From positions 1 to 35,687 of IMG/VR virus record IMGVR_UViG_3300007778_000019: a stretch of DNA of 35,687 bases. One strand, written 5' to 3'. This document shows, piece after piece, positions 29,218-34,539 of the stretch. Each line of letters begins with the position of its first letter. The first letter of the stretch is position 1. The notes beneath the pieces were generated by a model that saw only the letters and a list, made by a program, of their open reading frames with translations, made no database searches and had not been told where the DNA came from. Source of the DNA: a virus. Taxonomy: Duplodnaviria; Caudoviricetes. Both the position numbers and the translations under genes were made by a program.

Positions 29218-29805
29218 TTAGCTAAACATCTCGTAAATCTCTTTAGCAGTAGCATCACCGGAAAGCTTTGTACTGCAGGACATGTTAGGATAGAGCACTT
29301 CTAGCTCTGCTTCAAGGCCAACTTCGCTGTGGATAAGTTCACTGCACGGTATCGTACACATTGCATTTATTAGACGATTATTTATCCAAGCCAATAAATT
29401 AGGATCAGCTTTTACTAAGTAATACTGACTGTCATGGATCTGTGCTATAGGCAATATTTGATGGCTTAAGTTAGCTTCAGCAACTTCTTCCATAAACTTA
29501 ATAGCACTGTAATTATTCAGCAACCCATAAGACTGACCTAGCGCATTACCTGCTGTTCTGCCTTCAGCAGCTGCTTCAAACGGCATATGAGAGCGATTAA
29601 GCAATGTTTTATGTAATACTGGTGTCCTTACCCTAAGTCCAAAAGCAACTTCAATATAACCGTCCTTAGAGGCTTTCAGAAGCTTATCTTGAACCCATTC
29701 ATCACTGGCTTTGTAAAGTTCATGATAATTGTCTTCAATTTGTTTAGCTTCTTTTGGATCAAAGCCTAGGTTATTGACTAATGTATGCCAGGTTCCTTGG
29801 TACGT
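29218..29805 (-). CDS. DNA polymerase A, piece 3b: second half of motif B to the C-terminus
   Basis: TYQGTWHTL...FGLRVRTP...AEGRTAGNALGQSYGLLN...QIHDSQY (motif C). Similarity begins only at TYQG; the first 14 aa of the listed ORF from 29847 are out of the polymerase frame. Confidence 0.88.
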   Translation of the reverse strand, partial: TYQGTWHTLVNNLGFDPKEAKQIEDNYHELYKASDEWVQDKLLKASKDGYIEVAFGLRVRTPVLHKTLLNRSHMPFEAAAEGRTAGNALGQSYGLLNNYSAIKFMEEVAEANLSHQILPIAQIHDSQYYLVKADPNLLAWINNRLINAMCTIPCSELIHSEVGLEAELEVLYPNMSCSTKLSGDATAKEIYEMFS

Positions 29806-29948
29806 TACGTAAGAGCAAAGGTTGGACCCTTGCTCTTCTGCCTCCATTGACTGTATTTAGTCTCAATACTATTAATTTGAATACGGTTAAATTCACTATT
29901 ACTGATTTCGTGAATAGAATCAGGTTTATTTGATATGTGGATTTCCAT
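29805..29948 (-). CDS. DNA polymerase A, piece 3a (47 aa; not in the ORF track): first half of motif B
   Basis: Read by hand: MEIHISNKPDSIHEISNSEFNRIQINSIETKYSQWRQKSKGPTFALT*. INSI..KY...RQ.SK.PTFALT is N4-type motif B. Confidence 0.85.
   Translation of the reverse strand: MEIHISNKPDSIHEISNSEFNRIQINSIETKYSQWRQKSKGPTFALT
29811..29837 (-). promoter_or_regulatory. 12-bp mRNA hairpin immediately 5' of the ACG-TAA interruption (candidate recoding signal)
   Basis: mRNA AAGAGCAAGGGU-CCA-ACCUUUGCUCUU has 11 Watson-Crick pairs plus one G-U pair that forms only on the coding strand. Confidence 0.6.
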
Positions 29949-30516
29949 TAACTCTTGCTCTTTCTTGTTTCTGTCTTAACAACTCGGCATCTAGTAAATG
30001 TTCAATGCCTTGTTCTTTAGCAATTTTACGTATTTTTGTAGAAAGATACGGCACTCTATACGGTAGACGTAAAGATAGACTGTAATAGCTTTCACCTTCC
30101 AATACATCATGTAAACATTGGATAAACTCTTCTTTTGTAAGTCTACTAGTATATGTTTTAAGTCCTGTTCTAACTGCATGAATTGCATTTCCTTGACGTG
30201 TACACCACTCTAAATTACTAACCTGGTTATTTAACCTATCACCGTCTATATGGTTTACTTCAGGCAAGTTAAGTGGGTTAGGTATCCATGCTATAGCAAC
30301 AAGTCGGTGTACATACTTAGTGTATTGCTTACTATCTTTCCACAAACTTACTTGTGGGTATTTTAACCGTTTATTAGGTCTTGCACTTAATATTCTAGAT
30401 GGGCGTGGATAATAAACACCATCCCTACCTAAAACATATCTAGCTATAGATTTCACTACACCTGTGTCGCTTACAGCATATGAATCTTCAAAGCCTGTTA
30501 TTGGTAAAAAGTTCAT
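29926..30516 (-). mobile_element. NUMOD4-HNH homing endonuclease inserted in the DNA polymerase gene
   Basis: FLPITGFEDSYAVSDTGVVKS (NUMOD4) and VHRLVA.AWIPNP.NLPEVNHIDGDRLNNQVSNLEWCT..GN..HA (HNH). GGAG SD before ATG at 30516; overlaps both flanking polymerase pieces. Confidence 0.93.
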
Positions 30517-31069
30517 AAAATTCTTCTCCAGTGTATGCACTATTTTTGTATTTTATAGTATCACCAGATGTAAAACAAATGTCGGTGCCATTTACATTTG
30601 CACAGTATGTTTTTAATGCACTATTTTCAGGTATTTGACGTATGTCTGGCATTTGGTCTTTAAAGTACGCATAAGCTCTGAGACAGTGGCCATCGTATCC
30701 ATCCTCATAGACTTTCAATTTATTTGGATCTTTTGTTGTCAATGCAGCAATACGGTCTTCCAGACTAGAAAAGTCAGCGCCAATTAATACCCAGCCTTCA
30801 GGAGCTACAAAACACTTTTTAAACTTCTTAGCGTAAATAGTACCAGTAGACGGTAGATTCTGTAAGTTAGGATTACTACTGCTCATACGACCAGAAACAG
30901 TACCACCTAAATTAAAGTTACCATGTAAATAATGCCTACCGTCTGCTTTAGGTATGCTTTTATTTTTAAACGCTTTGATAAATGTATTTTGTAACTTGTT
31001 AATTTCAGCTAGGACATTAATGCTCTTTAACAACCGTAAAGCTTCAAGAGCTTCTTGTTTGGTTTTCAT
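30488..31069 (-). CDS. DNA polymerase A, piece 2 (end of thumb, palm motif A)
   Basis: GGTVSGRMSSSNPNLQNLP, IGADFSSLEDRI (motif A) and DGYDGHCLRAYAYFKDQMPDI, then a ~50-aa extension. Confidence 0.92.
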   Translation of the reverse strand: MKTKQEALEALRLLKSINVLAEINKLQNTFIKAFKNKSIPKADGRHYLHGNFNLGGTVSGRMSSSNPNLQNLPSTGTIYAKKFKKCFVAPEGWVLIGADFSSLEDRIAALTTKDPNKLKVYEDGYDGHCLRAYAYFKDQMPDIRQIPENSALKTYCANVNGTDICFTSGDTIKYKNSAYTGEEFYELFTNNRL

Positions 31070-32538
31070 AAGGCATCATACTCTTCGTCAGAAATATTGA
31101 ACTTAGTCTTAAGTTGACTAATAAGTTTTTTAACAGTTTTATTCCCAGTAGCAGGTAACCCAGTATCAGTAGTATCAATAACATCAAAGCCAATATGGTC
31201 ATATAACAACTTGGTTAGATGTACTGTACTTCCTGGGTTAAACAATACTTTGCAATCATCTAAAGACACCACTTTACGTTTTAGTGCTTTATTTCTGTTA
31301 ACAAATTCTTCTTTAGTAAGTGCCCATTCAAAGTCTTTAACTAACTGACTATGTTGGATCACTTGGTTATGTTGCTCACGTAAATCATTAAGTTCTTGAT
31401 CCAAGGTATCTACAACAGACATGTCCATTGGCATACCTACTAATTCCATTTGTGTAATGTTCTTTAACGCTGGAATAAATAGGTTCTTGTAAATGTCGAG
31501 TTGGTTATCTTGAACCAAAGTAGGGTAATGTTTACTGTAGGCATAGTGCGTAGATAAGGCGTCTACTAAATTATATTCTAACAGTTCTTTTTCAGGTATT
31601 TGTGTAATGTCATGAATCTGCTCTTGAGCATAATCACCTGCAAATTCAAAAGCTATAGCTTTCAAACTTAAATTATTACCTGTAGTAGAATTAGTAGCCA
31701 AATAAGCAATTAACTTAGTATCGTGCACTTTACGGTACATAACATCTAATCCTTGGATCATGCCTTCATAATCCAATGGGTGTTGCATAAATAAGTGATA
31801 CACAATGCAACGTATGTCGAATGTAGCGTTATGCCACATAGTCGTACCAGAATATGTACAAAAAAACTTTTTAATTGCAGGTATATTTTCGTCAGTAATT
31901 CTAAAAGCAATACCTTCATGTTGGTTCCAGGCAAAGCTAATCGTAGCAGGTACAGCTTTAGCCAGATCCAAACCATAAGTTTCAATGTCACAAGACAGCA
32001 TGGAATGCTGATGTAGTTTAGATAGTGTTGTTTCAACCTGAGAGAGCGTTTCAGGGTAATAAGCACTGTGTATGATGTTATGCCCTAGCTCTGTATAAGT
32101 CCCCTGTAACCAGCTGTTAAGGGTTTTTAAACTCAAGTCTAATTTGTCTTGTAATGCTGGGTTATGGAACAGTGCTTGATAATTAACACCGTAAATAATG
32201 TTTATGTGTTCAAAGTTTTTGATAGCACAAGGAATCACATAACCATAACAAGGTTCAGTCTTTGCTTTCTTGGTTAAAAACTTAAAATAAGCTGAATCTG
32301 CAACATATAACGTCTTAATATTATTTTCATTTAAGATGGGTAATATATGCTGCAGGTACTCTTTAGCAATAGCGGCTGTAATTTTATTATTATCTGGATA
32401 CTCCAGTGATAAAGCTACTACAGAGCTATTAATAAACCTAACATAATAGGAGTACAACAAGTCATAGCTACAGGCTTTGTCTTTAATAAGCAAAGCTACG
32501 CTAGGAAATTCATCCGGTGTAAAATGGTACTCTTTCAT
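31066..32538 (-). CDS. DNA polymerase A, piece 1 (N-terminal domain, 3'-5' exonuclease, start of thumb)
   Basis: ExoI CDIETYG, ExoII HNATFD, ExoIII YNLVD; thumb FNPGS...LLYD and TGLPATG. Confidence 0.92.
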   Translation of the reverse strand: MKEYHFTPDEFPSVALLIKDKACSYDLLYSYYVRFINSSVVALSLEYPDNNKITAAIAKEYLQHILPILNENNIKTLYVADSAYFKFLTKKAKTEPCYGYVIPCAIKNFEHINIIYGVNYQALFHNPALQDKLDLSLKTLNSWLQGTYTELGHNIIHSAYYPETLSQVETTLSKLHQHSMLSCDIETYGLDLAKAVPATISFAWNQHEGIAFRITDENIPAIKKFFCTYSGTTMWHNATFDIRCIVYHLFMQHPLDYEGMIQGLDVMYRKVHDTKLIAYLATNSTTGNNLSLKAIAFEFAGDYAQEQIHDITQIPEKELLEYNLVDALSTHYAYSKHYPTLVQDNQLDIYKNLFIPALKNITQMELVGMPMDMSVVDTLDQELNDLREQHNQVIQHSQLVKDFEWALTKEEFVNRNKALKRKVVSLDDCKVLFNPGSTVHLTKLLYDHIGFDVIDTTDTGLPATGNKTVKKLISQLKTKFNISDEEYDAL

Positions 32539-33898: not shown

Positions 33899-34186
33899 TT
33901 AAATTACCCAAGGCATAGCGAGTATTTGTTTGCGTGAGTAAGTTCTATAGTTAAGTGGACTATCTAGTGGATGGTAGCGGTTTACACCTGATCTAAAACA
34001 TCCACAGGATTTAACTTTTTTAATACTACTGGCTCTAGTAGTAAAATGTTTATTGCACACTTTACACTCTAAAACCCACATATGATCTCGTTGTTTTTTA
34101 ACGTAATGACTGTACTCAATAACCTTGATGTACTTGGTTTCAAAGTTAGTGAATATAGTTTTATTTTTTCCAATAGGTGTAGGCAT
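33899..34186 (-). CDS. Basic Cys-rich protein resembling the N-terminal Zn module of phage homing endonucleases
   Basis: IKVIEY...MWVLECKVCNKHFTTRASSIKKVKSCGC; no nuclease motif follows. Confidence 0.6.
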   Translation of the reverse strand: MPTPIGKNKTIFTNFETKYIKVIEYSHYVKKQRDHMWVLECKVCNKHFTTRASSIKKVKSCGCFRSGVNRYHPLDSPLNYRTYSRKQILAMPWVI

Positions 34187-34188
34187 AG

Positions 34189-34539
34189 CTATACCCAATT
34201 CTCCGCATGTAAAGGCGATTCAATCTGCCTAACAATGTATAAATGGTAGTCCATTGGATCACCTGACATTTCATTGTCATCGTTTTCTTCACCAATTCGT
34301 ATAAACCCATAAAGATCTCTTTCGCTTGGAATTTCTTCAATAGCTGCTAGTAAAGACTCCATGTAAGATACATCTGGATAATCCAAATACCACCTGGTTC
34401 CATTAACAGCCCAATGATAAGCACCATCAATAACTGTTTTGCTGTCATGCCAAAACGCATTGATACCTACACCAATGAGCACTTGTGCATCATAAGTATC
34501 TTTGTCTATAGCTATAGCTACATCACTTCGATAACCCAT
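34189..34539 (-). CDS. Phage hypothetical protein (MGYRSDV-type)
   Basis: MGYRSDVAI...RWYLDYPDV...FIRIGEENDD, a pattern recurrent in phage hypothetical proteins; AAGGT SD. Confidence 0.75.
   Translation of the reverse strand: MGYRSDVAIAIDKDTYDAQVLIGVGINAFWHDSKTVIDGAYHWAVNGTRWYLDYPDVSYMESLLAAIEEIPSERDLYGFIRIGEENDDNEMSGDPMDYHLYIVRQIESPLHAENWV

Follow-up and report, generated by a model that had tools for sequence, protein, structure and literature searches.

The family A DNA polymerase gene of an N4-like phage is interrupted within motif B by five bases, which are a real, selected and conserved coding gap inside a mobile HNH endonuclease cassette. Probably, the gap is crossed by programmed translational bypass and the insert protects the phage from the cassette's own HNH endonuclease. 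In this mechanism, the peptidyl-tRNA-Thr would leave ACG codon 47 at a UAA stop, and a hairpin ending at this codon likely helps the ribosome forward. The peptidyl-tRNA would then re-pair at an ACG five bases on, which yields a predicted 241-aa small polymerase subunit.

Organization of the polymerase gene

The window (the whole stretch of 35,687 nucleotides analysed here) is a fragment of an N4-like phage, from a record that is ~48% complete. It carries N4-type genes for a 3530-aa virion RNA polymerase, a portal, a capsid and a primase (PHROG assignments). The polymerase is encoded on the minus strand in four pieces (Table 1). The cassette that splits it comprises, in this order, a C-terminal extension (CTE) of piece 2, the HNH gene, an N-terminal extension (NTE) of ORF 3a and the insert. 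The NTE is conserved among relatives, and both tails would serve the reassembly of the subunits.

Table 1. Features of the split polymerase gene and its cassette in the window
Feature	Position	Strand	Basis or remark
Polymerase piece 1, 490 aa, 3'-5' exonuclease part	31066..32538	-	ORF and PF01612; ATGA overlap with piece 2
Polymerase piece 2, 193 aa, motif A; C-terminal end is the cassette's CTE	30488..31069	-	PF00476 profile positions 59-201
CTE, ~50 aa, cassette-borne	30488..30640	-	Conserved across 24 split loci and missing from unsplit polymerases
NUMOD4-HNH homing endonuclease, 196 aa, between pieces 2 and 3a	29926..30516	-	PF07463 and PF13392; PHROG HNH
ORF 3a, 47 aa, ends GPTFALT	29805..29948	-	ORF list; 375 short homologues; motif B placed via PolA structure alignment
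Parts of ORF 3a: NTE (~residues 1-24, 29948-29877) and 5' half of motif B (R..SK.PTFALT)			
12-bp mRNA hairpin, predicted stimulator	29811..29837, arms 29837-29826 and 29822-29811	-	z -4.1 versus synonymous recoding
Predicted take-off codon ACG (Thr47)	29808..29810	-	Sequence
5-nt coding gap: TAA (29807-29805) overlaps the predicted landing ACG (29805-29803)	29803..29807	-	
Resumed frame 3b, 194 aa: YG of motif B, fingers/palm, motif C (QIHD)	29218..29802	-	PF00476 profile positions 221-343

A second split of the same polymerase, at 31069-31066, consists of the ATGA overlap and holds no insert. Loci L030 and L152 harbor here an ORF of 163 aa that matches neither Pfam nor PHROG; L003 has one of 79 aa ahead of piece 2, and other relatives are unsplit at this point. 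Elsewhere in the window, a small ORF (33899-34198) with a weak match to an HNH-endonuclease PHROG is possibly a remnant.

The five-base insert

On the minus strand the junction reads CTT ACG TAA CG TAC CAA GGA, with TAC at 29802-29800, exactly as a sequence-only reading of this DNA had reported. The same reading placed take-off at codon 47 and predicted a 241-aa joined product; both agree with a 47-aa ORF in which TAA directly follows ACG and with a resumed frame of 194 aa. Removal of the five bases restores FALT-YQG as in unsplit relatives, again as it had claimed. A profile of 12 gapless subunits aligns this stretch to R..K......YG of solved PolA structures, which we take to be motif B, and the break falls directly before the tyrosine.

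Contigs from three of three runs span the site gaplessly (depth 34, 17 and 25). They match the window except for one synonymous SNP at 29524. The source samples of the window may be these very runs, and the comparison is one of contigs, which drop rare variants, rather than of reads. The same insert is present in the metagenome contigs L150 and L151, which show 3 and 1 differences from the window over 5141 nt. In relatives the break recurs with other letters (ACC-TG-ACC, ACG-TA-ACA, ACY-TA-GCT), and the insert is therefore neither chance nor artefact. The perfect tandem repeat of the window, and hence its matched codons, may simply reflect an origin by tandem duplication. As a conjecture, tandem duplication of TA-ACN in YTA ACN TAY would make take-off, stop and landing in one stroke.

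Two other explanations of the five bases were rejected. Suppression by a phage tRNA finds no tRNA in the window (of a record ~48% complete), and a remnant of an intron is not compatible with 5 nt, which has no ribozyme core.

Gapped relatives

When 3a, piece 2 and the HNH served as queries, 136 non-redundant junctions at motif B were recovered, with misses of the regular expression corrected by hand. A short insert occurs at 28 of these loci (26 distinct cassettes) and a group I intron at two; the rest are uninterrupted. Relatives with their own inserts and compatible codons, which the sequence-only reading had named as a check on its proposal, do exist, with varied lengths and letters. The inserts measure 1 nt (n=2), 5 nt (n=15), 6 nt (n=3), 10 nt (n=3) and 7, 9, 40, 45 and 48 nt (n=1 each). 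The residue before the insert is the Thr of FALT in 18 loci, the Thr of K.PT in four, Pro in three, Phe in two and Leu in one. The split in all 28 gapped genes comes with tails of the same type.

A DNA pattern scan allowing 1-31 nt after FALT returned 58 matches, eight of them genuine polymerases, all with 5 nt and representing six distinct cassettes. A profile search with 3a matched 375 short proteins (clusters). The 120 listed include 82 that stop at the FALT position, 26 that run one residue further (Arg in 19) and six that stop at PTFA, the intron position; the profile itself favours ends of this kind. A second library contributed 243 representatives (50% identity); 142 of them were new, and their C-termini fall at the FALT position in 24, at K.PT in 14 and at K.P in 21. 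No cultured phage with a gap was among the matches listed when 50,697 phage records were searched by tblastn with three NTE peptides, the CTE, three HNHs and a gapless subunit. The cultured-phage regions that were fetched comprise ten with an uninterrupted motif B, two (L329 from JA-1, and L183) without a motif match, and phage nACB1 with an intron. A scan of genome contigs added one locus, L327, which is gapless.

The family includes several unusual members. One-base inserts at the motif B Phe codon, beside the cognate HNH, read UUU-C and UUU-U (L077:3123-3160, L172:1075-1112; protein P0088) and are candidate +1 frameshifts; the insert in L172 could be a homopolymer error. At the other extreme, the 40-48-nt gaps (L073:3204-3251, L078:3141-3180, L265:1155-1199) are gene 60-like, with strong GC hairpins, A-rich 3' ends and no immediate stop. 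Three loci (L067, L170:183-188, L176:1123-1128) carry in-frame, stop-containing 6-nt inserts after the motif B Pro, where 21 of the 142 new representatives also end, together with a third HNH type and no hairpin, and could be read by hop or by readthrough. In L003 (843-1877) an HNH is fused in frame to the C-terminal part of the polymerase while the NTE and motif B are missing, which points to a deletion or a misassembly.

Predicted take-off, landing and reading frames

In all 28 loci the landing triplet is compatible with the take-off tRNA: six triplets are identical to the take-off codon, 11 differ at position 3 only and 11 are G.U-compatible. Seventeen landings thus match at positions 1-2, and the other 11 depend on G.U pairing at one of these two positions. 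The sequence-only reading had emphasized matched codons. This stands for ACG/ACG in the window, but exact identity is unnecessary in relatives (6/28). For gaps of at least 7 nt, all eight landing triplets match positions 1-2 of the take-off codon, compared with 3 of 190 internal triplets. The looser G.U rule is also satisfied by 23 of the 190 internal triplets, and the 11 G.U cases therefore weigh less. In 5-nt gaps a purine at landing position 1 follows from the initial stop itself.

All 13 distinct 5-nt gaps open with a stop codon (TAA in four, TAG in seven, TGA in two), and their fourth base is C in 12. The long gaps of L073, L078 and L265 open with sense codons. Gap lengths cover all three frames. 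In the frame-changing gaps of L162, L165 and L078 a stop in the resume frame directly precedes the landing triplet, so that no single frameshift joins the frames at these loci. A mini Shine-Dalgarno sequence ~6 nt before the landing site is absent in the window, and purine-rich stretches were seen, by eye, in L073, L078 and L265. A take-off/A-site stem-loop has no room within 5 nt, and hairpins inside the gap were found only in the 40-48-nt gaps. The ribosome hop proposed by the sequence-only reading is the best fit to the family as a whole, as it would accommodate pairing in 28 of 28 loci, lengths in three frames and closed resume frames. The 5' hairpin and the link to an HNH cassette were missed by that reading.

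The 5' hairpin

The 12-bp hairpin of the window ends at the take-off codon and is more stable than expected from synonymous recodings (z in Table 1). The median z is -3.96 in 16 site-A loci (12 below -2), against -0.65 in 29 split gapless loci (two below -2) and 0.08 in 73 loci that are unsplit at the site (ten below -2). All ten core pairs form in 9 of 16 site-A loci and in 1 of 102 gapless controls. When the gap lies four codons upstream (four loci), a different hairpin ends at that earlier codon in 4/4, with z of -2.9 to -5.6, and 4 of 102 controls have z < -2 at this position. The hairpin is missing from the three 6-nt loci and from L071, L072 and L078. The stem shows modest covariation, its score being equalled or exceeded in 13 of 500 shuffles. 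Seven phylogenetically independent pairs link gap and hairpin, short of significance (p 0.06, at a threshold set once the data had been seen).

Pairing of the mRNA leaving the ribosome has been proposed as the forward driver of the gene 60 hop (10.1101/2024.12.09.627546, accessible part), and by this precedent the hairpin would act as a push from behind. A role as terminator was rejected, as no U tract follows the stem.

Mobility of the cassette and its link to the gap

The HNH gene moves as a unit between divergent genomes, i.e. as a free-standing homing endonuclease cassette. A unitig of 956-974 bp (L030:1686-2659) is present in all three runs at depth 70-74, flanked by contigs at ~27-32 and 50-62. 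In its 974-bp form it holds the end of piece 2, CTE, HNH, NTE and gap, and stops 13 nt past the gap. Its depth is the sum of those of the two flanks, which shows that two divergent phages share the cassette. The window and L154 share one sequence through the gap, with divergence starting 8 nt beyond it. L028, with cassette and gap, is 97-98% identical on both flanks to the unsplit L060. Similarly, L078, which has the HNH and a 40-nt gap, is 99% identical to L258, which is split but has neither; the identity picks up again at the landing triplet. L078 looks like the re-invasion of an HNH-free split gene. A quick tree of 3b with 87 rows requires 16 changes of the gap label, and strong branches force at least eight of them.

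A gap is found in 24 of 24 split loci with a cognate HNH and in 0 of 26 split loci without endonuclease (Fisher p 8e-15, kinship uncorrected; the count leaves out the intron locus L177 and five loci whose upstream DNA was too short). Phylogenetically independent HNH-gap pairs number four, none in the opposite direction, which falls short of significance (p 0.125). The six loci with a divergent HNH comprise two with 6-nt gaps and four gapless ones (L163, L167, L327, L175), three of which have amino-acid changes at the Thr or Tyr. A split intein was rejected, with no invariant Cys in the CTE alignment and no Pfam intein match. Split polymerases that have lost their HNH (several of L249-L319, and L029) often hold unrelated genes between their halves, and in L028 (1196-2839) two further HNH genes break the same polymerase upstream.

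Group I introns mark the same motif. They lie within the motif B Leu codon, 4 nt upstream of the gap site, in L177 (635-871; Rfam) and in the Acinetobacter phage nACB1 (OQ032511; L179:2357-3195). The nACB1 intron, which its record does not annotate, carries an HNH, and the HNH of the window is 50% identical to it. Among five loci scanned, including L030, a close relative of the window, only L177 gave an Rfam match. Intron-borne endonucleases as a rule cut near the insertion site of their own intron, and motif B is therefore the likely HNH target. Gap and intron are likely alternative ways of breaking this target. Self-protection is suggested by the gap-HNH association together with the intron position, and would mirror the account given for MobA.

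Alternative explanations

A duplication introduced by assembly, an alternative kept by the sequence-only reading, or by sequencing has next to no chance of being correct: the insert of the window is a perfect 5-nt tandem repeat, but it recurs in three runs and in SNP-distinct contigs, which refutes the idea at contig level, and relatives have inserts at the same place that are not repeats. That reading had also considered a -1 ribosomal frameshift just before the stop, adding two residues. A 5-nt gap does equal the -1 frame, which is open for 18 codons upstream in the window, and L077 and L172 resemble +1 slips. The window nevertheless has no slippery site, as no codon pair in codons 34-47 re-pairs fully and ACG re-pairs 0/3; moreover, 7-, 10- and 40-nt gaps need other frames and three loci are closed just before landing. 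We regard a frameshift as highly improbable. Removal of the bases at the RNA level, by polymerase skipping or an unknown small splicing reaction, could draw on the group I introns at this motif and the strong hairpins of long gaps. It is very unlikely, in view of gaps far too short for ribozymes, the lack of conserved splice ends and the selection of a stop at the gap start. In addition, the end repeat is 1-3 nt, codon-aligned and variable at the third position, a pattern which RNA-DNA realignment would presumably not allow; freedom at this position with positions 1-2 held suggests re-pairing of a tRNA rather than skipping at the RNA level.

Alternatively, 3a and 3b could remain separate peptides, made by termination and re-initiation (at the overlapping ACG or at ATG 29847) and assembled like the other pieces. 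TAACG looks like an overlap of stop and start, the resume frame of the window has an ATG 14 codons upstream, and the polymerase already tolerates two other splits. However, landing triplets of relatives (ACC, ACA, ACT, GCG, GCT, CTA) are not start codons, an upstream resume-frame NTG exists in no more than 5 of the 28 loci, and a start at the first NTG downstream, often 50-104 codons away, would cost the motif B tyrosine. As gapless split relatives also keep 3a and 3b as one ORF of 240-250 aa, separate peptides are very unlikely. (An AlphaFold model of such a gapless subunit, with mean pLDDT 62 and the NTE below 50, was set aside as low confidence.) The remaining alternative is a dead or leaky subunit, in which unprogrammed hopping is low-level, the cassette is parasitic and the phage relies on co-infecting phages or host enzymes. 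Unstimulated stop-hops are indeed described as low-level in the accessible text of PMC5009743 and 10.1101/2024.12.09.627546. Purifying selection over the 60 codons after the gap (seven pairs, pN 0.09-0.20 versus pS 0.46-0.88) may predate the arrival of the cassette. In contrast, the cassette's own 3a has dN well below dS in 4/4 pairs, and 24 of 24 resume frames examined are open over 135-208 codons, the two shortest reaching contig ends. With a phage depth of 17-34 in three runs and the short ORF kept in 375 clusters, the chance that the subunit is dead or leaky appears very slight. Programmed bypass is the reading retained here.

Implications

We lean, if only somewhat, towards a second, independently evolved endonuclease-plus-bypass element in N4-like phages, in which a lone hairpin drives a 5-nt hop well enough for an essential polymerase. 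On this same footing, the family would form a natural series that begins with +1 slips, continues with hops of 5, 7 and 10 nt and ends with gaps of 40-48 nt, and would show how bypassing arises and grows. If true, an independent family of endonuclease-linked bypasses exists in another essential gene. The 5-nt gap is shorter than the minima given in the accessible literature (20 nt for MobA elements, 10 nt for Hau3). It reduces the signal to a 5' hairpin, a stop and a matched codon, which permits a direct test of the mRNA-pairing push model (10.1101/2024.12.09.627546, accessible part), and the natural gap-length series offers ready variants. In phage metagenomes, the bypass would also account for polymerases that look broken and for hundreds of orphan ORFs of 42-48 aa.

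Comparison with known systems

To our knowledge, very few systems have programmed bypassing that is established by bench work. The literature describes it for T4 gene 60 and homologues, Streptomyces phages and yeast mitochondria; a search that covered few subscription papers and no bioRxiv supplements found no report for N4-like polymerases. The comparisons below follow the accessible portions of the sources cited.

Cultured counterparts are the N4-like phages AlfredRasser, VEc25, Pollock, SP5M and Pylas, whose polymerase is HNH-split with a similar CTE. Their split lies ~20 codons further upstream and motif B is uninterrupted. Loci L243-L246 and L180-L182, from cultured E. coli and Klebsiella N4-like phages, have a related HNH at this upstream split; the AlfredRasser and Pylas records annotate the halves as one joined CDS. 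HNH-split N4-like polymerases have been noted before, with introns suggested (PMC3670811). The Aeh1 nrdA gene, split by mobE, similarly yields an endonuclease-split enzyme with added tails.

In the mitochondrial byps of Magnusiomyces, many inserts are likewise neutralised by hopping with relaxed take-off/landing matching, although these are 27-55 nt long and place an unused codon in the A site (PMC5009743). Synthetic stop-hops in E. coli (Weiss 1987, via PMC5009743 and 10.1101/2024.12.09.627546) also cover +5/+6 over a stop between matched codons, yet they are artificial, low-level and without stimulators. The 10-nt bypass in the terminase of Streptomyces phage Hau3 (PMC10732093) shares the short gap and a 5' stem-loop proposed as stimulator; in contrast, it depends on UUA, a rare codon, a regulatory role is proposed for it, and the accessible text describes no endonuclease cassette.

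A further parallel is T4 gene 39/mobA/gene 60 with its 50-nt bypass, where an essential replication gene is likewise split by an HNH gene that brings CTE and NTE tails (10.1101/2022.08.31.505936). Gene 60 also shares a gap around codon 46-47 in the second ORF, take-off followed by a stop or a rare codon, and tRNA-compatible take-off and landing. Its homologues show the same third-position tolerance, and a rare AGG may replace the stop (Manning and Atkins; 10.1101/2022.08.31.505936). In MobA elements the gap is lost after endonuclease loss and is said to block self-nicking (10.1101/2022.08.31.505936, also for Bonocora 2011). There are also differences. The take-off tRNA is Thr (also Leu or Pro) here and Gly or Asp in gene 60/MobA, first-position G.U landings occur in the present family, and gaps span 5-48 nt instead of the 20-50 nt of MobA elements. 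The 5-nt gap of the window, unlike that of gene 60, has no room for a take-off/A-site hairpin or mini Shine-Dalgarno sequence, whereas the 5' hairpin, unconserved in MobA elements (10.1101/2022.08.31.505936), is the conserved element. The element thus works like gene 60/MobA but is not a member of the MobA element: MobA resides in topoisomerase II of T4-like phages, and the host gene here is a PF00476 family A polymerase in a phage with an N4-type virion RNA polymerase.
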